Virus record (IMG/VR): IMGVR_UViG_3300037116_000081
Span: 21,925 to 85,924 of that record
Length of the DNA stretch: 64,000 nt
Strand: one strand, 5' to 3'
Source: a virus
Both the position numbers and the translations under genes were made by a program. This document shows positions 4,063 through 30,444 of the stretch, in pieces; position 1 is the first letter of the stretch; every line of letters begins with the position of its first letter. The notes under the pieces are model-generated. The model was not told the DNA's origin. It made no database searches and was given only the letters and a program-made list of their open reading frames with translations.

Positions 4063-4234
4063 AAATGTTCCTTTCAAACAATCCTGACGTAGCCGAACTC
4101 TTAGGCGCTGGGCTCATCGCTCTGTTCTTCATGCTGGGCGACTACTACGCTTCACGTGTGGAAGGCGGGTACACGATCGCGCGGTCAGTGGAAACGATTC
4201 GCGATATGTCGGCTTCAGTTCAAGAGGGCACACC

Positions 4235-4345
4235 ATGAAGTTGAGAGGCTGGATACTCATGGCTCTCTGGAGTGGTTTCTACAGAAGCATCTTGCGTTTT
4301 GTGCCGCACTGGAATTGCGGCACGGAGAAAGGTCGATCCGAATGA
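4235..4345 (+). CDS. mini-ORF running through hairpin L1 (MKLRGWILMALWSGFYRSILRFVPHWNCGTEKGRSE)
   Basis: GAGGG SD; stop overlaps the ATG of the next gene (ATGA); translated by hand. Confidence 0.5.
   Translation: MKLRGWILMALWSGFYRSILRFVPHWNCGTEKGRSE
4295..4330 (+). repeat. cassette left-end hairpin L1 (GTGCCGCA-CTGGAAT-TGCGGCAC)
   Basis: 8-bp perfect stem, conserved loop, preceded by CGTTTT and followed by GGAG. Confidence 0.85.
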
Positions 4346-4596
4346 ACGATAATCCGCTAGGCCCATTGCAGGGCACATCGAGTCAGCAGTTCCACCTGAA
4401 CACGCTGGATTTCCAGAAAGTCGGCCGCATGGTGCTAGTGCAGATCATCGGGCTCGGCCTGACGCTCGGGGTTCCGTGGTTGCTGAAGCTTTCCTACGTG
4501 TGGAAGGGCCACGATTACACGCCAGATGTCCTGATCGTGGTGAACTGCGTAGCTGAACTGGGGAGACGTTTTCTGACCGGGGCACCGAAGACCTGA
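4342..4596 (+). CDS. small membrane protein, holin-like; paralog of 24669-24923
   Basis: 84 aa from MNDNPLG; hydrophobic segments; near-identical protein on the minus strand at 24.7 kb. Confidence 0.65.
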   Translation: MNDNPLGPLQGTSSQQFHLNTLDFQKVGRMVLVQIIGLGLTLGVPWLLKLSYVWKGHDYTPDVLIVVNCVAELGRRFLTGAPKT

Positions 4597-4773
4597 AAGG
4601 AACCCATGAAAGATATCATTCAACGAGTGCTGCTTGAACAGACGAACCTCTCGGACGCAAAGGCGGAGTATGTGGCACGGGAAATCGTGAACGCGTTGGG
4701 GCCTTACGCGCGGAACGATGATATCGGCAGCAGAACCGAGTACGCGGAGTCCGCAACTTAAAAGTAGAGGCGT

Positions 4774-5181
4774 GTGTTAACCTTGATGTTGAATCCGTTC
4801 GCTGATTACCACTTCATCTTTGATATCATCTCTGGCGTTGCGGTTGTCGCGGGCTCCTACTTCGGGCTCATGATAAAGAACGCGCTCGGGGCCATCCGGC
4901 TAGAGCAGGCCAACGCGAAGTCCGAACTACTCTTACAGCAATCGCACACGAAAGCAGAACTACTCGCCCATCAGAACGAAGTCAAAGAGGAAATGCTCGA
5001 ACAGCATGACGTGGTTGTCGAAGGGCAGCACGATTTAAGGGCCGAGTTTGTGGATAAACACGCTGAAAACAAACAATCTCTTGCGGTTCACCTCAATGAC
5101 GATGACCGCCGATTTGAAGCCTTGAACACAGTGCTGGCGCGGATCGATAAGACGGTCGAGAAGATAGCCAACGGGCACTGA
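4774..5181 (+). CDS. N-terminal TM plus coiled-coil protein (holin/XhlA-like lysis accessory)
   Basis: One TM helix followed by a heptad-rich region; same layout as 63299-63655. Confidence 0.55.
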   Translation: MLTLMLNPFADYHFIFDIISGVAVVAGSYFGLMIKNALGAIRLEQANAKSELLLQQSHTKAELLAHQNEVKEEMLEQHDVVVEGQHDLRAEFVDKHAENKQSLAVHLNDDDRRFEALNTVLARIDKTVEKIANGH

Positions 5182-5187
5182 CGACAG

Positions 5188-5225
5188 CCCAACCTTTGGG
5201 CGGGGATACTCCAGATCCCCGCCGA
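5188..5225 (+). repeat. cassette right-end hairpin R1 (GGCGGGGAT-ACTCCAG-ATCCCCGCC)
   Basis: 9-bp perfect stem; preceded by the CCCAA-cct-TTGGG mini-hairpin. Confidence 0.85.
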
Positions 5226-5303
5226 CACCTGACTGAGCACATTTGAACAGTATCAAAACCCCTGAACTGGGGTATACTCCAATCTGAAGAGGAGAAAACG
5301 AAA

Positions 5304-5597
5304 ATGTCTACCAAGCCTGTTCCAGCAACGGATAAAAACGAGAAAACCATCTCGGTGAACGTGGAAGGAAAATCGCGCCAAGTCGTCATTCAGCGGCACG
5401 AAACCACCACACACATTCTCGATCGGCTGAACCTGAAGGGCTATCAGCTCTCCATGGGGCCGAGCACGCCACAGAAAACTAACGTGCTCAACGCCGGCGA
5501 TATCGTTTTTGACAACGTAGTAGAAAACGAAGGGCTCGTCGCGACTGCGGTTCCGCCTGTCGGAAGACCTGCGCAACCTCAGCCCGTCAAAAAGTAG
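5304..5597 (+). CDS. possible ubiquitin-like (beta-grasp) protein
   Basis: Strong SD GAGGAG; beta-beta-alpha pattern ISVNVEG..RQVVI....TTHILDRLNL. Confidence 0.4.
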   Translation: MSTKPVPATDKNEKTISVNVEGKSRQVVIQRHETTTHILDRLNLKGYQLSMGPSTPQKTNVLNAGDIVFDNVVENEGLVATAVPPVGRPAQPQPVKK

Positions 5598-5602
5598 GGA
5601 CT

Positions 5603-5806
5603 ATGTTCCCTGCCTTTCTGATCCAGATTGTCATTTGCCTCATCATCGTGGGGCTCCTGCTGTACGTGGTCAACCTTCTGCCGATTGAGCCGAACATCAA
5701 GCAGATTATCCGGGTGGTGGTGATTGTGTTCGTTGTCATCTGGTTACTCTATGCTTTGATGGGTGCGGCTCCTATGGCTCCTATGAGTTTGCCCCTTAGA
5801 CGTTGA
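5603..5806 (+). CDS. two-TM small membrane protein (Thivi_2564-like)
   Basis: LIIVGLLLYVVNLLPIEPNIKQIIRVVVIV pattern. Confidence 0.65.
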   Translation: MFPAFLIQIVICLIIVGLLLYVVNLLPIEPNIKQIIRVVVIVFVVIWLLYALMGAAPMAPMSLPLRR

Positions 5807-5832
5807 ATCACAGCCGGCTTTAGGCGTATACT
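5803..5832 (+). promoter_or_regulatory. sigma70-type promoter TTGAAT-18-TATACT, leaderless start at 5839
   Basis: Direct motif reading; ATG lies 6 nt after the -10 box. Confidence 0.55.
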
Positions 5833-5850
5833 TCTGACATGAGCATCCTC

Positions 5851-5885
5851 CGTTTCGTGCGGCATTGGAGTAGCCGCACGGAGGG
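5851..5885 (+). repeat. left-end hairpin L2 (CGTGCGGC-ATTGGAGTA-GCCGCACG) inside mini-ORF 5839-5895 MSILRFVRHWSSRTEGCR
   Basis: 8-bp stem, loop variant TTGGAGT; GGAGG SD for the methyltransferase. Confidence 0.85.
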
Positions 5886-5891
5886 CTGTCG

Positions 5892-6308
5892 ATGACACCG
5901 ACCTTGCAGGCGCGATCTGTACACTTCAGCTCCTCATCAGACCGTTGGGCCACCCCGCGGGCCGTTTACGATGCGCTCGACGCGGAGTTTGCTTTTGATT
6001 TTGACCCATGCCCGTTAGATGGAAGCGCAGACGGCCTAGCCAGCCTGTTTACGGAGTGGCGTGGAAGGCGGGTATTCTGCAACCCTCCGTATGGCCCCGG
6101 CCTCGGAAAGTGGCTGGAACGTGGCCTAGAAGCCGAACTAGCAGTCTTCCTCGTCCCTGCCCGCACTGATACGCGCTGGTTCCATGACATCGTGCTACCA
6201 AAAGCGGTGGAGATACGATTCCTGAAGGGCCGCCTGACATTCGGAGATGCCGTCAACCCGGCCCCGTTTCCTAGTATGGTAGTGATATTCCAGAGGGCAG
6301 GTCGATGA
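5892..6308 (+). CDS. phage DNA N6-adenine methyltransferase (Dam-like)
   Basis: WATP, FDFDPC, VFCNPPY, PARTDTRWFH and RFLKGRL motifs. Confidence 0.9.
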   Translation: MTPTLQARSVHFSSSSDRWATPRAVYDALDAEFAFDFDPCPLDGSADGLASLFTEWRGRRVFCNPPYGPGLGKWLERGLEAELAVFLVPARTDTRWFHDIVLPKAVEIRFLKGRLTFGDAVNPAPFPSMVVIFQRAGR

Positions 6309-6460
6309 CCCGGCTGCTACTCGCGGTGTGGTGGTCTGCCGCTGGTTGGATTGCCATGTGCGCGGGTGTTAGCTGGATTCTTTTTAACGGTTGGTTGCGG
6401 AAGACAGTTCAAACTCTTGGGCGGGGCTACTCCAAGTGCCCCGCCGAAACCCCAAAGTAG
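6305..6460 (+). CDS. small membrane peptide ending across hairpin R2
   Basis: ATGA-coupled to the methyltransferase; MTRLLLAVWW...LGRGYSKCPAETPK. Confidence 0.5.
   Translation: MTRLLLAVWWSAAGWIAMCAGVSWILFNGWLRKTVQTLGRGYSKCPAETPK
6412..6447 (+). repeat. right-end hairpin R2 (GGCGGGGC-TACTCCAAGT-GCCCCGCC)
   Basis: 8-bp stem, loop contains ACTCCAA. Confidence 0.85.
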
Positions 6461-6618
6461 CGTATGACACTACAGGTCTGTGACGTATGCCGATTAGTAG
6501 ACGGAGACTTGTCAGTGAAGTTGTGCGACTGGTGCCAATCCTGTAAAGCGTGGATATGTCAGAAGGACTGGAATAACTGGCCCCGGCGCTCGCTCGCGGC
6601 TATTCGGAGAATGAGACA

Positions 6619-7239
6619 ATGAACCCCCTCGGCACACCAGCTTACTTACCAGGCATCGACGTTTCGCACTTCCAGGGAGTCATAGACTGGCAGCGCGTGA
6701 AAGCGGCGGGCATCGGATTCGCATTTATCAAGGCGACGGATGGGACAGGCTTTGTGGACCCGCAACTGAACTACAATGCTCTTGCTTGCCAAGCGCTGAG
6801 TATCCCGTTCGGGCTTTACCATTTCTTCCGGCCCACCGCGGACTCTGCGTCACAGGCTCAGTTTTTCCTGGCCAACACCAAGCCCTATACCCCGTTGCTT
6901 CCGCCTGCGCTTGATCTGGAACTCGGCCCGGTGACAACGAGTCAAGCGGCTACATGGCTCGACATCGTAGACGTGGCGCTTGGCCGCGAATCTCTGGTGT
7001 ACACTGCCCCGGCTTTCGCGGCCGAGAATTTTAACGGCGAAAACTCAGGACTGATCAGCGTCTATCCCCTCTGGATTGCAGAGTACACAACCAAACCTGC
7101 CCCAACTGTGCCGGCCGCGTGGGAAGATTGGGAATTCTGGCAGCACACCCCGAGTGGACAAGTTGACGGAGTACCGAATGCAGTAGACTTAGATTGGTTC
7201 CATGGAACAGCCGACGATTTAAGGGCATGGGTGAAATGA
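6619..7239 (+). CDS. GH25 lysozyme (muramidase) endolysin
   Basis: GIDVSHFQG, FAFIKATDG, LYHFF, LDLE, LWIAEY, FWQ and VDLD motifs. Confidence 0.93.
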   Translation: MNPLGTPAYLPGIDVSHFQGVIDWQRVKAAGIGFAFIKATDGTGFVDPQLNYNALACQALSIPFGLYHFFRPTADSASQAQFFLANTKPYTPLLPPALDLELGPVTTSQAATWLDIVDVALGRESLVYTAPAFAAENFNGENSGLISVYPLWIAEYTTKPAPTVPAAWEDWEFWQHTPSGQVDGVPNAVDLDWFHGTADDLRAWVK

Positions 7240-7253
7240 CCGCGAGCATTTTG

Positions 7254-7290
7254 CGTTTCGTTTTGCACTGGGGTAGCAGGACGCTGGGAG
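7254..7290 (+). repeat. left-end hairpin L3 (CGTTTTGC-ACTGGGGTA-GCAGGACG) inside mini-ORF 7236-7298 MTASILRFVLHWGSRTLGDR
   Basis: Stem with two G-T wobbles on the coding strand; GGGAG SD. Confidence 0.85.
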
Positions 7291-7298
7291 ATCGATGA

Positions 7299-7676
7299 AT
7301 GGCGACTAAGCGTAAACAAGTTCGACCCACGAAAGGGGAACCCGCTCAACCGTCTCCCGCTGGTTTTGAAGCATGGGCTATTATCGAAATCTTTGGCCAC
7401 CAGAAATACGCGGGCAAGGTTTCGGAGTTCGCAATCGGCGGGTGTAATTTCGTGCGCGTCGATGTTCCCGAGCTGCCCACGCGCCGTCCACAGGAACCGG
7501 CCATGCCCGCGTTTACCAAGCTCTTTGGAAACGGAGCCGTGTATTCGATCACGCTTGTATCTGAGGACGTGGCCCGCGCGGTCGCTGCGACGATCCGGCC
7601 AGAGCCGCTCAACGTTTACATCCCGATAATCCCTGACCGCCAGTTGCGCTCCGGAGACGAGGACGGATTTCAGTGA
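7299..7676 (+). CDS. conserved phage hypothetical protein (WAIIEIFGHQ..AG family); cassette cargo, duplicated at 11865-12251
   Basis: Highly similar paralog in inverted orientation. Confidence 0.8.
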   Translation: MATKRKQVRPTKGEPAQPSPAGFEAWAIIEIFGHQKYAGKVSEFAIGGCNFVRVDVPELPTRRPQEPAMPAFTKLFGNGAVYSITLVSEDVARAVAATIRPEPLNVYIPIIPDRQLRSGDEDGFQ

Positions 7677-7694
7677 TGTCGCCGACCGTTCGGA

Positions 7695-7740
7695 ATCTTG
7701 GGCAGGGCTACTTCAGTGCCCTGCCGACAGCCCCTGGAAC
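7695..7740 (+). repeat. right-end hairpin R3 (GGCAGGGC-TACTTCAGT-GCCCTGCC)
   Basis: 8-bp stem with a compensatory change relative to R2. Confidence 0.85.
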
Positions 7741-7752
7741 CTGAAAAGATTC

Positions 7753-8286
7753 GTGTACCTCTACTACCAACCCCGGCGAAGAAGAGGCTTCGGTGATCTC
7801 TCAACCGTTGCGGCCGCGATTCAGCAAATTGAAGGTTGGGCGCCCGGTACACGATCTTACCGCAATAACAATCCTGGGAACCTGATGTACGCGGGGCAAC
7901 CCGGCGCGACTGGCCAAGATCCTCAAGGCTTCGCAATCTTTCCGGATTATCAAACCGGGCTCACGGCGCTCGACAATCAAATCACACTCGACGCTTCGCG
8001 CGGCCAGACCATTTCGCAGTTCACGTCCATCTATGCCCCGGCGTCAGACGGAAATAACCCCACGTCGTATGCGGCGCAAATAGCTTCAGCGGCCGGCCTC
8101 TCACCTTCAGACTCACTTTCAGCAGCAATCGCGGGCTCCAGCTCGGCGCCCGACGTTTCAAGCGGTATGGATCTCTCATCGCTGTTTCCGTCGCTCAGCC
8201 TTCCGTCAATCGACTTCACGGACCCGACGACAATTGCCGTAACGGTGGGGATCGGCCTGGCGCTGGCGTGGGCACTGAATGCGTAA
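7753..8286 (+). CDS. virion-associated lysozyme-like/transglycosylase protein with C-terminal TM anchor
   Basis: IEG..PGTRSYRNNNPGNL, FAIFP and YAPASDGNNP motifs; C-terminal hydrophobic helix. Confidence 0.7.
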   Translation: MYLYYQPRRRRGFGDLSTVAAAIQQIEGWAPGTRSYRNNNPGNLMYAGQPGATGQDPQGFAIFPDYQTGLTALDNQITLDASRGQTISQFTSIYAPASDGNNPTSYAAQIASAAGLSPSDSLSAAIAGSSSAPDVSSGMDLSSLFPSLSLPSIDFTDPTTIAVTVGIGLALAWALNA

Positions 8287-8293
8287 CTCTTTT

Positions 8294-8327
8294 CGTTTTG
8301 TGCTGCCCTGGAGTAGCAGCACGGAGA
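8294..8327 (+). repeat. left-end hairpin L4 (GTGCTGC-CCTGGAGTA-GCAGCAC) inside mini-ORF 8279-8347 MRNSFRFVLPWSSSTENGRQRG
   Basis: 7-bp stem plus conserved loop. Confidence 0.85.
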
Positions 8328-8346
8328 ATGGTCGGCAAAGGGGGTG

Positions 8347-8454
8347 ATGCACTTTGCAATCTGCGCACTTTGCGGCGGCTACCATGCAATCGGATGCTGT
8401 CCAACCCCGCAGTTTTGCCCGCGCGTGGACGTGGTAGCGCTAGCGGGCCGGTAA
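8347..8454 (+). CDS. 35-aa Cys/His-rich peptide (MHFAICALCGGYHAIGCCP...), cassette cargo
   Basis: SD AAGGGGG; TGATG coupling; translated by hand. Confidence 0.5.
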   Translation: MHFAICALCGGYHAIGCCPTPQFCPRVDVVALAGR

Positions 8455-8463
8455 AACCACGAT

Positions 8464-8506
8464 CTCCCAACCTCTTGGGCGGGGCTATTCCAGTGCCCCG
8501 CCGATA
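8464..8506 (+). repeat. right-end hairpin R4 (GGCGGGGC-TATTCCAGT-GCCCCGCC)
   Basis: 8-bp stem; preceded by CTCCCAACCTCTTG. Confidence 0.85.
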
Positions 8507-9168: not shown

Positions 9169-9578
9169 CGTGCCCGAAGTGCGGCGCGGAAGTCCCAGAA
9201 GGAAAGATCGCCTGCCAATGTTTCCTGGTGGCTGTCGATAACGAGATTGAAACGCGCGCGCTGAAAAACTTTGCGGAGGGTCCACCACACACTTCGCGCT
9301 TGTACCTGACAAGCTCCCCCTCTAGCGGCTACCACTTAATGCCGATGCCGCGGGACTGCTTGACGCTGTGTCGCAAGAAACGCTACGGCAGACCCGAGAC
9401 CCGCATAATCTTCGCCGACGAGATCCGGAAGAAAGGGCTCGATATCACAAGCGGAAAGAAACCCGATTGGTGCATGGGCTGTCTGATGAAAGCGCTTCAG
9501 AGCGCGAACGCGGGAAAGCCTCAGCCGGCGAAAGACAACTCCGAAGAGCGCCAACCCCAAAAGAGCCAATGCGAATAG
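9165..9578 (+). CDS. hypothetical Zn-ribbon protein
   Basis: CPKC..CQC, CMGC; GGAG SD. Confidence 0.6.
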   Translation: MTCPKCGAEVPEGKIACQCFLVAVDNEIETRALKNFAEGPPHTSRLYLTSSPSSGYHLMPMPRDCLTLCRKKRYGRPETRIIFADEIRKKGLDITSGKKPDWCMGCLMKALQSANAGKPQPAKDNSEERQPQKSQCE

Positions 9579-10637: not shown

Positions 10638-11160
10638 TATACACCGAGATCCCGAGACTCTTGATGTCCGAAGGTGCGAACCTCACAGTATAGCCGATCG
10701 ACTTCCCGAAGGTCTCAGCAGCAGCGGCAGCGGCTACAGCGGTCTTTAGCGCGTCTTCGAGCCGGGTAGGAGGAATAGACGTTGGGATACCGTCCAAGGG
10801 CTCAGATTGGTCAAGAATCGTTGCTATGGCTGTTTTAGGAGCTATCTTCGTCTCGTGCGGCAATGGAGTAGCCGCACGTTGGGCCCCGTTGGCTATCCAG
10901 TTGAAAGTACGCCCGTTCTGGTGTTTCGTGATAGTAAACGGCTGTCCGGGCCTTACGCCCAGGTCTTCGATCTGTGGGCCTACTAACAGTGGCGTGTACA
11001 GCAAGTCACCGTTTGAGAGTATCCAGCGGAGCTGATCTCCCCAGGTGCCGGGCACTAGTTTCCCGGTCGGGTACCTCAGTGCGATGGTGTAGGGCTTGTT
11101 CGGCTCCAACTTTAGGATTGGCATGTTAGCGGCGAGCCCTTTCGAGTTCATCTTCAGCAT
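10606..11160 (-). CDS. hypothetical protein, possibly OB-fold/SSB-like
   Basis: Long ORF with a putative TTGACG promoter upstream; start uncertain. Confidence 0.45.
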   Translation of the reverse strand: MLKMNSKGLAANMPILKLEPNKPYTIALRYPTGKLVPGTWGDQLRWILSNGDLLYTPLLVGPQIEDLGVRPGQPFTITKHQNGRTFNWIANGAQRAATPLPHETKIAPKTAIATILDQSEPLDGIPTSIPPTRLEDALKTAVAAAAAAETFGKSIGYTVRFAPSDIKSLGISVYIGQQGGRYAA

Positions 11161-11407: not shown

Positions 11408-11442
11408 CAGGGCGCTGCATTCCAGAGCAGCGCGAGACGCAG
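11408..11442 (-). repeat. left-end hairpin L5 (minus: GCGCTGC-TCTGGAAT-GCAGCGC) in mini-ORF MIFLRLALLWNAAP; no partner found
   Basis: 7-bp stem, conserved loop, CGTCTC flank. Confidence 0.8.
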
Positions 11443-11795: not shown

Positions 11796-11800
11796 TTCAA

Positions 11801-11851
11801 TTTCCAGGAGTTATCGGCAGGGCACTGGAGTAGCCCTGCCCAAGAGGTTGG
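11801..11851 (-). repeat. right-end hairpin R5 (minus: GGCAGGGC-TACTCCAGT-GCCCTGCC)
   Basis: Near copy of R3, including the downstream CCTGGAA. Confidence 0.85.
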
Positions 11852-11864
11852 ACGGTCGTAGAGC

Positions 11865-12251
11865 TCACTGATAATCATCCTCGTCTCCTGAGTGCAACTG
11901 GCGGTCAGGGATTACCGGAATGTATATATTGAGCGGTTCAGGGCGAATCGTAGCGGCAACCGTGCGCGCTACGCCTTCAGATACAAGAGTGATCGAATAC
12001 ACAGCGCCGTTCCCAAAAAACTTGGTAAACGCGGGCATCGCGGATTCCTCGGGACGTCGCGCTGGCAACTCCGGAACATCGACGCGCACGAAGTTACATC
12101 CACCGATTGCGAACTCGGAAACCTTGCCGGCGTATTTTTGATGTCCAAAGATTTCGATAATCGCCCATGCTTCAAAAGCAGCGGGGGACGGTTGAGCAGG
12201 TTCGCCTACCCGTCCCCCTTTGGGGTGTTGAACTTGTTTGCGAGTGCCCAT
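11865..12251 (-). CDS. conserved phage hypothetical protein, paralog of 7299-7676
   Basis: Sequence alignment by eye. Confidence 0.8.
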   Translation of the reverse strand: MGTRKQVQHPKGGRVGEPAQPSPAAFEAWAIIEIFGHQKYAGKVSEFAIGGCNFVRVDVPELPARRPEESAMPAFTKFFGNGAVYSITLVSEGVARTVAATIRPEPLNIYIPVIPDRQLHSGDEDDYQ

Positions 12252-12260
12252 TTTTCATAA

Positions 12261-12298
12261 CTCCCAACGTCCTGCATTCCAGAGCAGGACGAAACGAA
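12261..12298 (-). repeat. left-end hairpin L6 (minus: CGTCCTGC-TCTGGAAT-GCAGGACG-TTGGGAG)
   Basis: 8-bp stem; in-frame IRFVLLWN in a mini-ORF. Confidence 0.85.
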
Positions 12299-12463
12299 TA
12301 AATCCCCGCGCCCGGCTCCGTTTCACCTTTTCTGATCACCCCCCGGTAATTTTCAAGGGAAGCGGAGCCAGACACGAGACGCCCCGAATCTCCGCCGCTC
12401 GGGACCACGCGGGTTGCAATCGACGCTCGCCCGGCTAAGGTTGCGGCGCCGATCCGGAACTTG

Positions 12464-13036
12464 TTAAAGCTTCTTAGCAGCCTTGGCTGTCGCTTGGGCT
12501 GCTGTGGTCGTCGCGGTGGTACTCGTAACGGGCGTCGCGACTCCGAACAAATCACCAACCGCCGTCGCTGCTGTCGGTGACACAGTAACGGTATCGGTCA
12601 ACGTTTCCGCCGTCGATCCGTCCTTGTTGAGCACCGTCACTGTACAACTGATGGGGACATTCGGCTGCGCGGGAGCGGAAGGCGTCGATACCACACCGCT
12701 AAGCATGGTGAAAGTGCCAGCCGGAACCGAAGCTGTAGCATCTGCCGGCCGCACCGCTACGGGTGATGCGTCAGGCGTCAACGCGACGGTGGCAGGGTCC
12801 GCCGATACAGCGCTAATGGTTTGACCAGGGCCGAGCAACGCGCCAAGAAACGGAGCGGTGCCGAAAATGTAGAAATTGTCTGTGTCCCCTACGGGAAGAA
12901 TCAATGGCATATTTTCTCCTTTTGACTTTGAAAACAGAATGCCGATCCGACTTGGAACCGGGTTAATTAACCGTCGAAGCTCCTTGAGTATTTCTCTTTC
13001 AAGCTCAAGAATTTCTCTAAGCTCTGCGGGCCACAT
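12464..13036 (-). CDS. Pro/Thr/Ala-rich Ig-like protein with N-terminal extension; paralog of 22621-23097
   Basis: Shared MPLILP.GDT..YIFGTAPFLGALLGPGQTIS sequence. Confidence 0.7.
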   Translation of the reverse strand: MWPAELREILELEREILKELRRLINPVPSRIGILFSKSKGENMPLILPVGDTDNFYIFGTAPFLGALLGPGQTISAVSADPATVALTPDASPVAVRPADATASVPAGTFTMLSGVVSTPSAPAQPNVPISCTVTVLNKDGSTAETLTDTVTVSPTAATAVGDLFGVATPVTSTTATTTAAQATAKAAKKL

Positions 13037-13038
13037 TT

Positions 13039-13257
13039 CTAGGCCGTGGGTGTTGCGGGCTTCGCCGCGGCGGTTTTTGCCGCTATCGCTGCCTGAAGTC
13101 CTTGAATGGCCGTCATGGCCGCAGTGTCATTGACGTCCGCCTGGGCGAGCACCATAATGGTAGTGCTGCCGTCCGGATGCACCAAGCTAAGAATCAGGTT
13201 CACGATCCCCGGAGCCTGACCGATCAATGTTGTGATGATTGGCAATATCAAGCCCAT
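13039..13257 (-). CDS. small amphipathic membrane protein; paralog of 23250-23465
   Basis: Paralogy and operon coupling. Confidence 0.65.
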   Translation of the reverse strand: MGLILPIITTLIGQAPGIVNLILSLVHPDGSTTIMVLAQADVNDTAAMTAIQGLQAAIAAKTAAAKPATPTA

Positions 13258-14185: not shown

Positions 14186-14356
14186 TTACTCCGTTTCGCG
14201 CTGAACTGGGGTTTCAGCGCGTGAGGATTTGCGGGCACGCCACCACAGTTCTGGATCTCCGCTGCGATTCTTGTGCCATTTACCTTTGTGCCCCTTAGGG
14301 AGCGAGCATTGAGTGCCCCCACGCTTTCCGAACTCAGTTGAACGGCAACGCCTCAC
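14186..14356 (-). CDS. 56-aa cassette cargo (CSLPKGHKGKWH motif) ending in RAETPVQRETE
   Basis: Not in the ORF track; GTG start 6 nt after the hairpin-derived GGAGG. Confidence 0.65.
   Translation of the reverse strand: MRRCRSTEFGKRGGTQCSLPKGHKGKWHKNRSGDPELWWRARKSSRAETPVQRETE
14192..14222 (-). repeat. right-end hairpin C1 (plus: CGTTT-CGCGCTGAA-CTGGGGT-TTCAGCGCG)
   Basis: 9-bp perfect stem. Confidence 0.9.
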
Positions 14357-14444: not shown

Positions 14445-15278
14445 TCACAGAAATCTTTGATTGACCCAGCTCTGTACTCCATCCAGAAACTCAATTGGCC
14501 CAAAAGGCGTCTCCTGCGTTTTCCCGCATTCGTAATCCCAAACAGGCTCCCAGAGCTGAACCGATAACAGATCCCGCAAGTCCCGCTCAATCTCCGCGCT
14601 GTGCGTTGCGATGTGCAAGCGCTTCACTTTCGCGTTGAGGTCATCCAGCCCTGCGCGGATCACGAGGTATTCCTGGCCCTGTATGTCCACGTCGATCACA
14701 TCGACTAACTGGTGAGGGCGCAGAAGATCGGCCAACGTGACGGTTTCAGTTGTTAGCCCTTCTTCATTGAGCGTAGCTATCCGTTGTCCGTACCACTCAG
14801 CCGGCCGGCCAGTCAGAAAGAGACATTCGCCCGGTGTGTCCGATACTGCGGCTTCGACTAATGTCGGAATGATGCAAGGCGCTATGCCGAGTCCGTTATC
14901 TCGGCAATGTTGCAACATCCATTGGTAATGCGTGGGCTCCGCCTCCACCGCTACCAATCGGGTTCGCTCTAGCCCAGCCGCAAACGCCGCCCGCACAGAC
15001 CAGCGGCCATATCCGGCGCCCAGCTCCATGAACGTATAAATTTCGTTCGCGGCCTGCACGGATTCCAGTAGATCAATCCACTCAAAGTACTCTTCGTTGA
15101 ACGCAGGAAGCCCAGCTACTCCTACGGCGCCCGGCCCTTCCCTCGTTGTCTGCGCGGTGAATTCCGCCCGCGAAACAGTTCCGAGGAAGCTGTCACTTAG
15201 AAAAACAGGATTGCCCCACATGCGTAGAGGAGCCGGCTTCCGCACGAAATGAGAGAAGACTGGGTGATGTTCAGGCAT
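14445..15278 (-). CDS. FkbM-family SAM methyltransferase
   Basis: FMELGAGYG, VAVEAEP and VDIQGQE motifs. Confidence 0.85.
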   Translation of the reverse strand: MPEHHPVFSHFVRKPAPLRMWGNPVFLSDSFLGTVSRAEFTAQTTREGPGAVGVAGLPAFNEEYFEWIDLLESVQAANEIYTFMELGAGYGRWSVRAAFAAGLERTRLVAVEAEPTHYQWMLQHCRDNGLGIAPCIIPTLVEAAVSDTPGECLFLTGRPAEWYGQRIATLNEEGLTTETVTLADLLRPHQLVDVIDVDIQGQEYLVIRAGLDDLNAKVKRLHIATHSAEIERDLRDLLSVQLWEPVWDYECGKTQETPFGPIEFLDGVQSWVNQRFL

Positions 15279-15281
15279 TGC

Positions 15282-15605
15282 TCAAATCGATTCCCAAAAC
15301 GATTCCCTTGTCTTGAATGGAGGAGACTCAACATTTTCCGTCCCGCGCTGAACTGGGGTTTCAGCGCGTTGAGCACTCATCCACTTACTGAGGGCCTTCG
15401 ATGCGCAGGGTTCGGAGCAGATGTGTTTTTCTACTGTGTCGTCACCCGCGTTTACAACCGTCGTATCCCATGGGATTAATATAAAGACATCGGCGATCAA
15501 CAAGCTCGGCGTTCGCTGTTGCGCGTACGGCCTTAACCTCCACCAGTGATTCGATTCCTGCTTTTGCTTCCCGCACCCATCGCACGAGTAGACTTCGGAT
15601 TTCAT
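15282..15605 (-). CDS. Zn-finger hypothetical protein; C-terminal part encoded by hairpin C2
   Basis: CDGC...HICSEPC; RAETPVQRGTE. Confidence 0.7.
   Translation of the reverse strand: MKSEVYSCDGCGKQKQESNHWWRLRPYAQQRTPSLLIADVFILIPWDTTVVNAGDDTVEKHICSEPCASKALSKWMSAQRAETPVQRGTENVESPPFKTRESFWESI
15339..15372 (-). repeat. right-end hairpin C2
   Basis: CGCGCTGAA-CTGGGGT-TTCAGCGCG. Confidence 0.9.
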
Positions 15606-15895
15606 TCCGCCATCCGTCCTTTACAGAACTCGCGATGCGCTCCCCGCTGGCCCTGAAGCAACATCACTTCCACGCAATTACAGCACAGCCCCGCGTGTTC
15701 ATCATTCGCGCCTGCGCTCAGTAGCGCGCCGCACTTCCGGCAATTGTGTGGTTCAAACAGCGGACGGAGACGCGTTCCCAGGTCCCTACAGAATCGCGCG
15801 AACTGAAACGGATCAGAAACAGCCAATCCCAAACCAAGCAACGCGAGCAGAGGGAAGAACAACACCAGGCCGACGTAATTGAATGCGCGTCTCAT
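15602..15895 (-). CDS. TM plus Zn-finger hypothetical protein
   Basis: N-terminal TM, CRKC..CCNC; ATGA coupling. Confidence 0.6.
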   Translation of the reverse strand: MRRAFNYVGLVLFFPLLALLGLGLAVSDPFQFARFCRDLGTRLRPLFEPHNCRKCGALLSAGANDEHAGLCCNCVEVMLLQGQRGAHREFCKGRMAE

Positions 15896-16077
15896 ATTGG
15901 CCTCGCTATTACATCGTGGCTATAATGGTCCCACCAGAAATCATGAAAGCGACTCGCGTTCAACTCGCCGGCATCGGCTTTTAGCTGATCGAAGTCGGGC
16001 TCGAGCAACTCCTGTTCTGACGTGGCAACAAGCGAAGGGAACGCGAGCGAGCACGATTTACAGAACAGTTCGAACAT
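15892..16077 (-). CDS. small hypothetical protein
   Basis: Coupled ORF with CKSC..H motif. Confidence 0.5.
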   Translation of the reverse strand: MFELFCKSCSLAFPSLVATSEQELLEPDFDQLKADAGELNASRFHDFWWDHYSHDVIARPI

Positions 16078-16719
16078 TTACGCGGCCCTTCGGCTCTTCC
16101 CCACGCCTGCGTTCACGTGAGCCAGCGCGGTTTTGAAAAGCTCATCGAAAGATTGCCCGTCTTTGCCGGCCGCGAGTACGGCCTCCTGCGCTTCAGCAAA
16201 AGGAACTTTCAGATTGCAGAGAGCAGAGAGCACATCTTGATGAACTGAAGAAAGCATTTCGCGGTATTGTACTACACTTCCACGTTTTGCGTTTCGCGCT
16301 GCACTGGAGTTGCAGCGCGTTGGGAGTTCTTTCCCGAAAACTTTGGCAGGACCTCCCACAGTTGCCCGGTTAGGCGACGTACCCGACCATTTCTGGCTGT
16401 GACTTACCCGTCCCTGTTGTGCCTGGACGCCGATGGATTCAGATTTCTCTGAACGGACGGACTCGCTCATCTCAAGGTCCTGGGTCTTGCGACCGCGCTT
16501 ATATGCGCCACTACTCCAGTGTGGCGCAAGACGAAAACTATCGAGATTCAAAAAGAGCCGGGCAACCTTACTGCAACCGATTGCCCGGACAAGAAGTACA
16601 TGCGAAATTACAGATACTCCAAAGCCTATCAGAAACATCCACCCAGGTAAAGAGCGAGTCGCAACCACGCAGAGGGAAACCAGGGCGACACCAGCGAGGA
16701 AGCTGTAGGCGTGTTTCAT
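16078..16719 (-). CDS. membrane protein with C-terminal RuvA domain III-like module
   Basis: Two N-terminal TMs; DVLSALCNL...EAQEAV......FDELFKTAL. Confidence 0.6.
   Translation of the reverse strand: MKHAYSFLAGVALVSLCVVATRSLPGWMFLIGFGVSVISHVLLVRAIGCSKVARLFLNLDSFRLAPHWSSGAYKRGRKTQDLEMSESVRSEKSESIGVQAQQGRVSHSQKWSGTSPNRATVGGPAKVFGKELPTRCNSSAARNAKRGSVVQYREMLSSVHQDVLSALCNLKVPFAEAQEAVLAAGKDGQSFDELFKTALAHVNAGVGKSRRAA
16290..16326 (+). repeat. hairpin-family member inside a CDS (CGTTT-CGCGCTGCA-CTGGAGT-TGCAGCGCG-TTGGGAG)
   Basis: 9-bp perfect stem with full L-type flanks, inverted relative to local transcription. Confidence 0.85.
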
Positions 16720-17021
16720 TTTAACACCTCAGCATTTTCCGTCTCGCGCTGAATTGGAGTCGGATCGTCAGGCAGAAGTTCCAGTTCGTTTAGCTCGAAT
16801 GGTATCGCCCCGCCGAGCATCATCTTGGGACCGAAGACCTCAAAGATATTCCAGAGCTGAGTTTCGATCAAGCCATCCCGCCAGCCGGAATAGACTGCGT
16901 CACAATATTTTTCCCCATCCTGGATGTGGCCGAACACCACACGCGAATAGAAATTAACGAGGATGTTTTGCCCGTGTCTGTTGAGCTTCACCCGGACTCG
17001 TCGGTTAAGGTTGATCTTCAT
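16716..17021 (-). CDS. conserved phage hypothetical protein; ends across half-hairpin C3 (16740-16760)
   Basis: INLNRRVRVKL..G...QLW..F.VFG; ends TPIQRETE. Confidence 0.7.
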   Translation of the reverse strand: MKINLNRRVRVKLNRHGQNILVNFYSRVVFGHIQDGEKYCDAVYSGWRDGLIETQLWNIFEVFGPKMMLGGAIPFELNELELLPDDPTPIQRETENAEVLK

Positions 17022-17095
17022 GATTTATTTTGTCCCGAAACCAGCCACAAAACAAGTAACCAAAGTACCATTCTTGTCGTAGTACGAAATCCCTA

Positions 17096-17125
17096 TGTGC
17101 TGCATTCCAGGGCAGCACAAGACGC
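17096..17125 (-). repeat. left-end hairpin L8 (minus: TGTGCTGC-CCTGGAAT-GCAGCACA)
   Basis: 8-bp stem, conserved loop. Confidence 0.85.
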
Positions 17126-17136
17126 AACCTGCCCAG

Positions 17137-17292
17137 TCAGCAATCGCCGAAATTAACAGTCCAGAGCGCTACAATCTTCTGCCAAAACGATCCATGGCCG
17201 GTCATCTGTATTTCACAGGTCCCGTACTTATAAGTAGTCGCCAGCAATGGCAGACCGCAGATCAGCACACCACATGCGAGAATGCGTTTCAT
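17137..17292 (-). CDS. 51-aa secreted peptide (MKRILACGVLICGLPLLA-TTYKYGTC...GDC); paralog at ~30046-30201
   Basis: AAGGAGG SD; signal peptide; translated by hand. Confidence 0.65.
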   Translation of the reverse strand: MKRILACGVLICGLPLLATTYKYGTCEIQMTGHGSFWQKIVALWTVNFGDC

Positions 17293-17317
17293 TTGCCTCC
17301 TTTCTCCCCATTTTCTT

Positions 17318-17351
17318 CGTCTCGCGCTGAACTGGGATTTTAGCGCGTTGA
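17318..17351 (-). repeat. right-end hairpin C4 (CGCGCTGAA-CTGGGAT-TTTAGCGCG)
   Basis: Variant of C1. Confidence 0.85.
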
Positions 17352-17355
17352 GCTT

Positions 17356-17637
17356 TCAGTCCGTGTGGCATCGAAAATACCAGCCACCGTTTTGAGACTT
17401 GGTCCTCGGGATATCCGGGTCTTTTCCGAAGCGCGGTTTTGCGCAACGCGCCTGTTCAAGCCAATCTCCCCGATCCGTCGCCGCAATAATCACCACCGGC
17501 TGAGATAATGGCATTTCCGCAAACACGATCAAACAAGCGCCTACCTGCGGAATGATAGACCGCTCATGGAAGCCTACGACAAGGTACCCGCGTTCCTGAA
17601 TCAGGAAGCTTGCAACTTCATCACCTTTGGTCATGAT
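17356..17637 (-). CDS. hypothetical cassette cargo protein
   Basis: Fills the space between L9 and C4; SD derives from the hairpin flank. Confidence 0.6.
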   Translation of the reverse strand: MMTKGDEVASFLIQERGYLVVGFHERSIIPQVGACLIVFAEMPLSQPVVIIAATDRGDWLEQARCAKPRFGKDPDIPRTKSQNGGWYFRCHTD

Positions 17638-17639
17638 GC

Positions 17640-18047
17640 TCAACCTCCCAACGTCCTGCTACTCCAGTGCAGGACGAAACGAATACCATTCCTCATAAGA
17701 ATAGCGGCTATAATCACCACTCCGAACCACAACATGGACGGCTCCGGAGTAATCGTTGGCGGTGGCACGTACGGCGGCGGCACAATTGTCTGTCCTGGAG
17801 GAATCACAGGAGGCCCCGGAGGGATGACCACGGCCACATACGCAGGCGGCTCCCACGTCTCCGCTTTCGGCGCGCACCATTGGATTGCAGGGTTCAGGAC
17901 CGAATTCTCACAGATAATTTTATCCGTCCCATAACCCGGAAAGTAGACTACCGTTGTCCAGGCGTCCTGTTGCAAGGTGATCACGAGATCGCCGTAGGTA
18001 AACGGTGTCGTACCGTTCCCCATTGGCTGCTGAAGATTGACACTCAT
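17640..18047 (-). CDS. PEP-CTERM-like protein, Pro-rich; C-terminus fused to hairpin L9; paralog of 29598-29957
   Basis: TPEPS followed by a TM helix; ends IRFVLHWSSRTLGG. Confidence 0.7.
   Translation of the reverse strand: MSVNLQQPMGNGTTPFTYGDLVITLQQDAWTTVVYFPGYGTDKIICENSVLNPAIQWCAPKAETWEPPAYVAVVIPPGPPVIPPGQTIVPPPYVPPPTITPEPSMLWFGVVIIAAILMRNGIRFVLHWSSRTLGG
17643..17684 (-). repeat. left-end hairpin L9 (plus: CCTCCCAA-CGTCCTGC-TACTCCAGT-GCAGGACG-AAACG)
   Basis: 8-bp stem. Confidence 0.9.
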
Positions 18048-18523
18048 TAGCATTCCTCCGTCTCGCGCTGAACTGGGGTTTCAGCGCGGGGAACCTCCGA
18101 CCAATCCCAGAGACTTAGCGCGCCTTTTGCAGGAATCGGAGTTTCGAACGCGCGCACATTTTTAAGTATCCAACCAAACCGATTCGGAGAATAGTCTCCG
18201 AATGCACGCTCTCTTTCCGTGTCCAGTTCAGGGTAATCGTCAAACACTCCCGAGAGGCAGCCGCGCGCCTCTGTCGGAAGAATGTCAATGAGTTCGCATG
18301 TTGCGATAATCTTCCCAATAGGAAGTTGTAACGCGGACACCACGGAAAGGGAAGAACGGAATGGCTCAATTAGAACGTAATCGCGGCAATCGGGCGGGAA
18401 GCCCTTCGCGGCGTGTATCGCAAGCGGCCCACGGTACGCGGTGCTCCAGGAGCGTGTCTCGATTCTCTTCGCCCCGAGTGCTACAAGCGTAGCCCATGGC
18501 TGAGTGAGAGTCAGGGCTTTCAT
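18047..18523 (-). CDS. ASCH-domain protein (cassette cargo)
   Basis: MKALTLTQPWATLV..GAKRIETRSW.T.YRGPLAIHA...KGALSLW; ends RAETPVQRETEEC. Confidence 0.9.
   Translation of the reverse strand: MKALTLTQPWATLVALGAKRIETRSWSTAYRGPLAIHAAKGFPPDCRDYVLIEPFRSSLSVVSALQLPIGKIIATCELIDILPTEARGCLSGVFDDYPELDTERERAFGDYSPNRFGWILKNVRAFETPIPAKGALSLWDWSEVPRAETPVQRETEEC
18059..18088 (-). repeat. right-end hairpin C5
   Basis: CGCGCTGAA-CTGGGGT-TTCAGCGCG. Confidence 0.9.
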
Positions 18524-18529
18524 GCGAGA

Positions 18530-18570
18530 CCTCCCAACGTGCTGCTACTCCAGTGCAGCACGAAACGAAT
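18530..18570 (-). repeat. left-end hairpin L10 inside mini-ORF 18520-18582 MRSSIRFVLHWSSSTLGGLA
   Basis: CGTGCTGC-TACTCCAGT-GCAGCACG-AAACG. Confidence 0.9.
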
Positions 18571-18571
18571 A

Positions 18572-18697
18572 CTACTCCTCATTCTTTGGCCATTTCGCAC
18601 GGTCAGTCTTAGGGTACTTTGCGTTCGACGTAAACACTTCGTACGCAGCCATCCCGAGCAGGCATACGATGAGGAGAAAGCATCCAAGTGCAATCAT
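18572..18697 (-). CDS. 41-aa membrane peptide; paralog of 30244-30444 lacking the Zn finger
   Basis: MIALGCFLLIVCL.GMAAYEV shared with the paralog. Confidence 0.6.
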   Translation of the reverse strand: MIALGCFLLIVCLLGMAAYEVFTSNAKYPKTDRAKWPKNEE

Positions 18698-19134
18698 GCG
18701 GCCCTCCGTTGAATCAACTGATCTCTAAGGTATTCCCCGCAGACACGGAAAGCTCTGAGAATCGCATTCTTGGCCCCATAGGCAACCGGATCTAGCAAGA
18801 ATTCTTGCCCTCTGTAAAGCGCATGCCAGTAACGCAAGCCTGCTTCTTCCTCACGTGGGACGATTACCAGCCGCGGCTTCTCTCTCAACTCCCGTAAAAT
18901 CTCCTGCACATCCAATTCGTAAGTCTGAATGAATCGCGGCCATCCGATCCGGTGTTGCTCTTCGTGATGCGCGGAGCACAGCGGCAACGTGTCCAGGTCA
19001 GAGCGCTTCTGTCCCATCCCGCGTGATCCCGGAGCGTGCGCCGCTTGGACTCCCCGCGTGCGGCCGCAACCTGGCACAGCGCAAGGAAGCGTGCGGATGA
19101 AGGCGAGATGTTCGGGAGAGCGTGTGGGAGTCAT
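18694..19134 (-). CDS. DUF968/HNH-like nuclease-fold protein
   Basis: RSPEHLAFIRTLPC..C....QAAH....GMGQK.SD..TLPLC..HH.EQH. Confidence 0.8.
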   Translation of the reverse strand: MTPTRSPEHLAFIRTLPCAVPGCGRTRGVQAAHAPGSRGMGQKRSDLDTLPLCSAHHEEQHRIGWPRFIQTYELDVQEILRELREKPRLVIVPREEEAGLRYWHALYRGQEFLLDPVAYGAKNAILRAFRVCGEYLRDQLIQRRAA

Positions 19135-19138
19135 GTGT

Positions 19139-19444
19139 CTACAAGAACCTCTGCGCTACCCAACCGACTCCCAGGATCATCAGCAGTCCACAAATTTCAT
19201 AGATTTCCCTAAAGTGAAAGGGATATTCTCTTTCGGGTTTGGGCTTCTTGAAATTACGCCGCCTGAACATCGCGACAAGGCAGGACACGCCAATACTTCT
19301 TGCTACACCCAACGGTCTGACGTCGGTATAGGAAACGATAAACCACAGCCAAAAAAAGCTGGTTACGTATCCGGCCAAAACAATACTGATAGGCACCAGC
19401 AATATCCCGACGCAGCCCCAAGCCGAATCTTTTGTTTCGCCCAT
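19139..19444 (-). CDS. multi-TM membrane protein
   Basis: Three hydrophobic segments. Confidence 0.55.
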   Translation of the reverse strand: MGETKDSAWGCVGILLVPISIVLAGYVTSFFWLWFIVSYTDVRPLGVARSIGVSCLVAMFRRRNFKKPKPEREYPFHFREIYEICGLLMILGVGWVAQRFL

Positions 19445-19498
19445 GCGTTAATCTTGCCTCAGCGCGCGCACGCCGTCAAGATCCGGAAGTACTAGGAC

Positions 19499-19699
19499 TC
19501 ACACGCCAGCATCATCTTCCGTTTCGCGCTGAACTGGGGTTTCAGCGCGTTGAAAGTTCGCAACAAAGAATTGGCGCGAATAAAATCCCACGTCGCCTGA
19601 GTCGAACTTCACCGCGACGTAATTGCATCCCAGATTCACCTTGGTGATTTCACCAACGCTCCGTCTCGTAACTTTGTCACCCACTTTGAAATCTTCCAT
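19499..19699 (-). CDS. small SH3/KOW-like protein ending across hairpin C6
   Basis: FKVGDKV...GEITKV....VAVKFD; RAETPVQRETE. Confidence 0.65.
   Translation of the reverse strand: MEDFKVGDKVTRRSVGEITKVNLGCNYVAVKFDSGDVGFYSRQFFVANFQRAETPVQRETEDDAGV
19520..19553 (-). repeat. right-end hairpin C6
   Basis: CGTTT-CGCGCTGAA-CTGGGGT-TTCAGCGCG-TTGA. Confidence 0.9.
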
Positions 19700-29957: not shown

Positions 29958-30228
29958 GCGTCAGTTGAGCCCTCGCGAATGCGCCGTGCACGTTGCCCGC
30001 GAAGTTCTCACCGGGGCAACAAGAGACTTGGCGCATTCGTCAAAGCTCAGCAGTCGCCGAAATTAACAGTCCAGAGCGCGACGATCTTCTGCCACAACGA
30101 TCCATGGCCGGTCATCTGTATTTCACAGGTCCCGTACTTGTAAGTCGTCGCCAACAGTGGCAGACCGCAGATCAGCACACCACATGCGAGAATGCGTTTC
30201 ATTTTGTCTCCTTTCTCCCCATTTCTTT

Positions 30229-30254
30229 CGTCTTGCGCTGCTACTACTCCTCAT
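30229..30254 (-). repeat. collapsed/empty hairpin site (CGTCTTGCGCTGC-TACTACTCCTCAT)
   Basis: Left flank matches the flank of C4 (17290-17330); right flank matches the flank of L10 (18570-18582). Confidence 0.65.
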
Positions 30255-30444
30255 GAGAATAGCTCCCACATATCGGACAACGGCCCTGCCTTCCGGGTGC
30301 AGCGCAACCCCAGCATTGAAGTAGCTCATTCTTTGGCCATTTCGCACGGTCAGTCTTTGGGTACTTTGTCATTGACGTGAGCACTTCGTACGCAGCCATC
30401 CCGAACAGGCATACGATGAGGAGAAAGCAGCCAAGCGCGATCAT
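30244..30444 (-). CDS. membrane peptide with Zn finger
   Basis: Paralog of 18572-18697. Confidence 0.55.
   Translation of the reverse strand: MIALGCFLLIVCLFGMAAYEVLTSMTKYPKTDRAKWPKNELLQCWGCAAPGRQGRCPICGSYSHEE

Follow-up and report, generated by a model that had tools for sequence, protein, structure and literature searches.

Why do neighbouring hairpins on one strand of the DNA of a soil virus carry loops that are complementary to one another? We addressed this question in a 64,000-nucleotide stretch (the window; bases 21925-85924 of the 85,924-bp IMG/VR record IMGVR_UViG_3300037116_000081, hereafter G000), where eight hairpins lie along 4301-8502 in the order L1 R1 L2 R2 L3 R3 L4 R4. Coordinates are window positions unless marked as record positions. 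The initial annotation proposed that the loops of upstream (L) and downstream (R) hairpins pair, either to synapse the ends of gene cassettes in single-stranded DNA or to loop out the cargo in mRNA. We observed that the L and R hairpins, together with a third type (C), belong to a single element family, and that the same-strand complementarity of their loops results from the right-hand element being an inverted copy of the left-hand one. The elements probably mark the ends of small mobile cassettes.

All eight hairpins and their loop sequences were recovered as originally described. On the plus strand, L1 (4301-4323) has the loop CTGGAAT (4309-4315) and the 5′ flank TTTTG, folds at -16.8 kcal/mol and is followed by GGAG and by an ATG at 4342. 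L2 (5857-5879), with the loop TTGGAGT (5865-5871), stands upstream of a gene for a Dam-like methyltransferase. L3 (7260-7282; loop CTGGGGT, 7268-7274) contains the G-U stem pairs noted earlier, two in number, and folds at -8.9 kcal/mol, and L4 (8300-8322) presents CTGGAGT (8308-8314). The R hairpins are inverted elements on the minus strand. R1 (5199-5223; stem GGCGGGGAT) shows ACTCCAG on the plus strand (5208-5214), which is CTGGAGT on the minus strand; R2 (6420-6445) shows ACTCCAA (6429-6435), or TTGGAGT; R3 (7701-7725; stem GGCAGGGC) shows ACTTCAG (7710-7716), or CTGAAGT; and R4 (8478-8502) shows ATTCCAG (8487-8493), or CTGGAAT. RNA folding energies of the eight range from -8.9 to -21.9 kcal/mol. 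For six of them, none of 200 shuffles folded as well, compared to one for R4 and 12 for L3, and the L3 fold is weak for this reason. The loop pairings were likewise confirmed: perfect for L2/R2, complete with two G-U pairs for L3/R3, with one G-U for L4/R4 and one A-C for L1/R1. L2 and R2 do deviate from the consensus together, and TTGGAGT is the only rare variant common to partners in G000.

The pattern used to search for L hairpins also matches R hairpins on the minus strand, at 5200-5222, 7702-7724 and 8479-8501. In the window, the hairpin pattern gave 52 matches compared to 19.4 ± 3.8 in shuffled sequences, with none of 100 shuffles reaching 52, and the loop motif CTGGRGT gave 32 matches compared to 12.0 ± 3.3. 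Oriented by their loops, the copies of G000 (n = 30) have in common the 5′ flank TNTCG, a stem of 7-9 bp and the loop CTGGAGT, in an intergenic element of roughly 39 nt. Their outer flanks read ttccgTYTCG ... CGTTGggagg in the L and C types and ggggcTRTCGGCGGGGC ... CCCAAgaggttgg in the R type. Aligning 121 distinct copies, drawn from 13+ sequences, gave the consensus TnCGTTTCGCGCnGCACTGGAGTnGCnGCGCG. The R and C hairpins reproduce the L type in full, inverted and with its flanks, and complementarity at 6-7 of 7 loop positions is therefore automatic. To say that L pairs with R is to say only that both loops, each in its own orientation, are near the consensus. A general caution follows, namely that loop complementarity is no evidence of pairing where hairpins are inverted copies of one repeat.

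Across the family, nine of nine stem pairs change on both sides, 88.6% of the stem cells are paired compared to 64.2 ± 0.9 in shuffles (0 of 500 as good), and the stem covariation score is 0.618, compared to no more than 0.127 with slid partner columns. Structural selection acts on the stems, whose sequence is free but compensated. The conserved part is the loop, and CTGGAGT is retained across diverged viruses. The covariance models of Rfam 15, run over window positions 1-24000 at E ≤ 1, returned only a chance SNORD48 match (E = 0.85), and a keyword search of the open-access literature found no description of this hairpin family, which is not proof of its absence there. Inspection by eye led us to drop a sigma-54 promoter, an intrinsic terminator (the stems have no following T run) and an RNase III site (the stems are too short) as readings of the elements; the loop variants do not fit a restriction site either (CTGGAG).

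Across 13 representative sequences, orientation alternates in 99 of 127 pairs of neighbouring elements (P = 8.6e-11), including 22 of 28 in G000, 19 of 25 in the related virus G008 and nine of nine in contig L102. Convergent (+,-) neighbours are separated by a median gap of 307 nt (n = 51), compared to 862.5 nt for divergent neighbours (n = 48; Mann-Whitney P = 1.5e-7). A convergent pair is alike from both strands, so any mRNA of its cargo carries CUGGAGU upstream and ACUCCAG downstream, which is the polarity noted in the initial annotation. The alternation, the short convergent gaps and the limits of homology described below bear out the earlier view that the hairpins come in pairs at cassette ends. 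We also observed convergent pairs that are 62-75 nt apart and enclose no open reading frame (ORF), at 4092-4167 and 7949-8024 of contig G002 (L020), 9399-9467 of G008 (L073) and 9728-9790 of L113. In G002, each of these close pairs encloses a small extra palindrome, CCGGAT-N3-ATCCGG. Such pairs might represent empty cassettes; a small structured RNA is another possibility.

Evidence that the paired elements delimit DNA modules comes from duplicated and collapsed copies. Cassette A (7252-7745, plus strand) consists of L3, a cargo gene at 7299-7676 (phrog_29525, function unknown) and R3. Cassette B (11796-12298, minus strand) is its inverted paralogue, with elements at 11816-11840 and 12268-12291 and a cargo gene at 11865-12251. 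The two share 87% column identity within unrelated flanks, and the homology extends from ~12 nt 5′ of L3 to ~25 nt 3′ of R3. Elsewhere, record positions 39253-40502 hold two cassettes whose flanks are 92-93% identical to record 51971-52368; there, the copy has collapsed to 85 nt (record 52164-52249) that include half a hairpin, and the break in homology falls within the arm of the hairpin. In these alignments, homology starts and stops at the elements, both where two cassette copies are compared and where a filled site is compared with a collapsed one. A homologue of the phrog_29525 cargo, 38-39% identical, lies at 4963-5325 of the provirus G001, inside the convergent pair 4574+/5364-. Only four ORFs are common to G001 and the left half of G000, among them this cargo and an HNH gene, and the same cargo family thus sits within a convergent pair of an otherwise unrelated provirus. 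Joints of 17304 to 18588 and of 15278 to 19513, beside elements, were seen in DNA contigs of other peat and permafrost samples, although their sides measure only 30-35 nt. Within the population, the accessory region shows high plasticity.

Together, these data suggest that the elements are boundaries that resemble terminal inverted repeats, with convergent pairs acting as such repeats around mobile cassettes of one to three genes; we hold this reading with moderate confidence. The elements would be DNA-level junctions for cassette gain, loss, duplication and inversion, and a loop-recognising factor encoded by the virus may read them in the form of extruded hairpins or of single-stranded DNA. 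On the mRNA, a sense-oriented copy would also carry the ribosome-binding site of the cargo, partly covered in L1, L2 and L4. A candidate for the factor is an HNH/DUF968 endonuclease, encoded at 18694-19134 on the minus strand (PF06147, 30.6 bits against a cut-off of 27.8; phrog_131, E = 8e-11). Its gene is the single ORF common to all three fully fetched carriers of the family (G000, G008 and G001) and adjoins a hairpin element in each; tblastn located it in L120 and L128 as well. This protein is the sole candidate found for an enzyme that might act on the elements. In the same three genomes, Phage_integrase (PF00589), found in 14 of 14 control genomes, and Y1_Tnp (PF01797) were absent, and a serine recombinase (resolvase) was present only in G001.

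Could the loops nevertheless kiss in RNA, the 5′ CUGGAGU pairing with the 3′ ACUCCAG and looping out the cargo to process or protect it or to control its translation? The complementarity is real and the pairing physically possible: in all 12 convergent pairs of G000, 6-7 of 7 loop positions are complementary, the partner loops form duplexes of -5.4 to -9.6 kcal/mol on the plus strand, and the pairs are convergent and close. However, this much comes automatically with an inverted repeat, and partners are no more stable than shuffled partners, with means of -7.27 vs -7.43 kcal/mol on the plus strand (P = 0.75) and -6.38 vs -6.52 kcal/mol on the minus strand (P = 0.70). We assessed covariation between partners in 50 distinct convergent pairs with a spacing of no more than 1500 nt, with partners shuffled within each sequence as the null. 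Partner loops are identical in 31 of 50 pairs compared to 26.5 ± 2.5 expected, a borderline excess (P = 0.055; 29 of 48 and P = 0.098 before the viral contig L213 was added), and the summed Hamming distance between them is 27 compared to 33.5 ± 3.5 (P = 0.044). Where a pair contains a variant loop, the partners match in 7 of 26 convergent pairs vs 1 of 26 divergent neighbours (Fisher P = 0.025), as with TTGGAGT around the methyltransferase cassette, CTGAGGT in G001 and CTGGATT in L213; the remaining 19 of 26 convergent pairs are uncompensated. The same excess would be expected if the two ends of a mobile cassette were inherited together. Wobble pairing offers no further support. On the mRNA strand, with gene directions taken from a crude gene caller, the loop mismatches comprise 6 G-U, 5 A-C and 2 other (9 of 19 differing pairs, those with a direction assigned), and the G-U pairs of L3/R3 and L4/R4 to which the annotation had pointed are offset by A-C elsewhere, in a mix that random transitions would also produce. 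Between the paralogous cassettes A and B, three loop positions differ, with no Watson-Crick change to compensate any of them. In the minimum free energy (MFE) folds, R2, R3 and L3 have loops that are in part self-paired, and the constancy of the loop across diverged viruses would be at odds with pairing alone, which would permit joint drift. Contigs from RNA libraries contain no L-to-R joint, but they could hardly show one, and we give this little weight. The proposed kissing thus keeps its complementarity, while the sequences give at most a faint partner-specific signal; as an explanation of the elements we find it very doubtful. Of these signals, only the weak excess of matching loops between partners merits following up.

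Cis-acting RNA or transcription signals in every short intergenic gap, controlling translation or the stability or processing of mRNA, or exposing a loop for a viral protein to bind, make up another explanation, which we consider unlikely. The module boundaries would then arise since the elements are the sole conserved sequence available for homologous recombination, as proposed for the PeSLs of T4-type phages, which PMC2839356 describes as repeats that end in a Shine-Dalgarno (SD) sequence and mediate shuffling. In keeping with such a role, the elements occupy intergenic positions, and L1-L4 are each followed within ~10-25 nt by GGAG and a start codon. The MFE stems of L1, L2 and L4 run over the GGA of GGAG by U-G and U-A pairs on the sense strand only; they cover part of the SD, and a role of the sense-oriented copies in translation is therefore plausible. 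This role is compatible with that of a boundary but leaves the inverted copies unexplained. A signal of this kind would be expected in one orientation to transcription, whereas half of the copies present the complementary loop and the orientation alternates. Moreover, no Rfam family matched in the search above, and the stems have no clear strand bias: their non-Watson-Crick pairs on the mRNA strand are 15 G-U vs 10 A-C in the 98 elements with a direction (93 of 191 are without), and we regard this comparison as uninformative. The RNA data are Logan contigs of 150-267 nt from runs X16 and X22, which cannot show strand or ends and come from libraries that may hold DNA. One of them (5797-6005) runs through L2. 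Several end in or near hairpins (4327, 6435, 17332 and 18550), which assembly breaks at repeats explain equally as well as RNA processing, and opposite-strand joints at 4804/19699 and 6405/17690 have sides of 32-39 nt. Pairing could also operate on DNA, with hairpins extruded as cruciforms or in single-stranded DNA and the loops serving as a matching core through loop pairing or strand exchange, much like a lox or FRT spacer, except that the site would be folded when read, as integron attC is. Stem pairs are nearly always Watson-Crick whichever strand is considered (25 non-Watson-Crick pairs in 98 × 8, for elements with an assigned direction), so either strand can fold; the excess of matched variants is confined to convergent partners, and cassette boundaries fall at the elements. 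Yet this synapsis is highly improbable in our view, given that 19 of the 26 variant pairs are unmatched, that recombination at inverted sites would invert rather than excise, that no recombinase is common to the genomes and that the short-sided contig joints are not direct evidence of excision products. Folded partner sites with free stems and a seven-base loop as the matching core, cut or resolved by a viral nuclease such as the HNH/DUF968 protein, would constitute a new kind of cassette mobility. We think this quite unlikely; if true, loop-matching mobility would offer small genes a way to pass between unrelated viruses of soil Acidobacteria.

The view that the elements are cassette boundaries has to accommodate several observations that count against it. 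Within 4301-8502, L-to-R intervals (179-899 nt) and R-to-L intervals (598-839 nt) are similar in size, so which interval is the cassette is not self-evident. Contigs of other peat and permafrost samples show precise deletions of single genes whose joints lack a hairpin (15893 to 16080, 12473 to 13049 (or 12456-13036) and 16719 to 17062), and gene gain or loss here thus need not involve the elements. A purely DNA-level role leaves the conservation of the loop amid stem drift across diverged viruses unexplained, and the sense-only wobble pairs at the base of the L stems hint at a role in RNA. The excess of matched variants, weak as it is, is also predicted by loop-loop pairing. Searches of G000, G001 and G008 found no recombinase or transposase that would move cassettes, and the link to the HNH protein is one of co-occurrence only, in a gene class that is common in phages. 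If the elements do end mobile cassettes, they would provide a sequence-defined handle on accessory-gene movement among viruses of an abundant, poorly studied soil phylum, and their site logic of conserved loop, free stems and inverted pairs would be unusual.

The distribution of the family was examined within the record and beyond it. All elements of G000 lie within record positions 350-41458. This left part of the record (~41.5 kb) is collinear, in inverted order, with G008, a complete 44,054-bp virus with direct terminal repeats that itself carries ~27 of the hairpin elements, and 65 ORFs are common to the two. Terminase and portal genes were not found among the ORFs scanned in the left part. 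The right half contains terminase, portal, capsid and tape-measure genes, and its pattern matches have two loop mismatches and unrelated stems. Among the portal relatives of this half (G003-G007, 34-48 kb), 1 of 23 pattern matches is exact; we read these genomes as free of the family, judged from pattern matches, which falls short of proof. The right 44 kb is a tailed phage, comparable in size to these relatives, and repeats of ~90-300 nt occur at record 0.6, 41.6 and 85.6 kb. The 85.9-kb record looks like two joined genomes and could be a cointegrate or an assembly chimera. Positions 30047-30444, in the tailed-phage half, and 17137-18697 share cassette-locus flanks that are 92-93% identical, which indicates a recent exchange between the halves of the record.

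The other carriers are G001, an 81-kb provirus of the same lineage as a contig of a Bryobacteraceae metagenome-assembled genome; G002, a 10.5-kb contig; a dozen contigs from soil, peat and permafrost metagenomes; and the viral contig L213. A 15-mer scan of viral contigs returned 42 loci, with the family in only two (L018 and L020), and scans with variant loops returned 70 loci, again with the family in two (L162, which is G008, and L213, which was new). Among 185,579 species genomes, a single contig held the exact pattern more than once, and that contig carries a G001-like provirus. L213 (IMGVR_UViG_3300014201_000357) has zero consensus loops in 7.5 kb; its six elements have the loops CTGGGGT (three) and CTGGATT (three), and both of its convergent pairs are matched.

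Beyond the eight hairpins and cassette B, family members in the window with a CTGGAGT-like loop on the strand given were located on the plus strand at 10854-10878, 14197-14221, 15344-15368, 16295-16319, 17323-17347, 18065-18087 and 19525-19549, and on the minus strand at 11412-11433, 16504-16528, 17096-17119, 17652-17676 and 18538-18562. Pfam and PHROGs searches assigned almost no functions to 30 larger ORFs of the G000 left part and G008. The cassette cargos in which a domain could be recognised are an ASCH-domain protein (18047-18523, minus strand) and the Dam-like N6-adenine methyltransferase (5892-6308, plus strand). A GH25 endolysin gene (6619-7239) sits between cassettes.

Several known systems resemble the elements in part. 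Seven-base loops kiss in the ColE1 RNAI/RNAII pair, and complementary hairpin loops of this length are likewise a point of similarity with CopA/CopT of R1; the CUGG start of the present loop fits the YUNR U-turn motif. In those systems, however, the partners are on two RNAs from opposite strands of one locus, whereas the hairpins described here lie on one strand, hundreds of bases apart, and covary weakly. Integrons offer a likeness at the level of DNA, with small genes, mostly lacking promoters, set between sites that keep their fold while their sequence is free. An integron cassette has one attC site of 57-141 bp, in a single orientation and with extrahelical bases, which is acted upon by the tyrosine recombinase IntI. 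In contrast, the sites described here are perfect hairpins of 25 nt in inverted pairs, alternate in orientation in 99 of 127 neighbours and occur, in G000, G001 and G008, without a gene of the Phage_integrase family. Short GC-rich intergenic palindromes in alternating orientation are also typical of REP/BIMEs, which PMC2817692 presents as high-copy palindromes of bacterial chromosomes tied to Y1 RAYT transposases; the Y1 HUH transposase (Y1_Tnp) expected of these, or of IS200/IS605-type hairpin ends, is absent from G000, G001 and G008.

Two families of phage repeats come closer. The start-associated sequences and extended SAS (SAS/ESAS) of Cluster K mycobacteriophages are repeats that lie just upstream of translation starts and take in the ribosome-binding site (Pope et al. 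2011, PMC3203893). About half contain inverted arms separated by a short spacer; the repeats are retained among related phages, and no function is known for them. The 17-bp arms of ESAS are conserved and the spacer is variable, which is the reverse of what we observed, and SAS/ESAS lie nearly all in one orientation and are not described as cassette boundaries. The nearest analogues in behaviour are the promoter-early stem-loops (PeSLs) of T4-type phages, mobile regulatory cassettes also treated by Comeau et al. (2014, PMC4122927). As described by Arbiol et al. (2010, PMC2839356), PeSLs are intergenic repeats composed of a promoter and a stem-loop and ending in an SD, flank ORFans and mediate shuffling. 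That paper reports a sigma-70-like promoter and a terminator stem-loop with polyG/polyC tracts for PeSLs, and describes no conserved loop or inverted pairing, both of which are present here. By eye, no promoter hexamers were seen around the R elements and no -35/-10 pair in the consensus, no promoter scan having been run. Like the PeSLs, the elements occur in dozens, as repeated intergenic stem-loops with an SD and a start codon among small genes of unknown function, and stand at the break-points where modules are inserted, deleted or replaced between related viruses.

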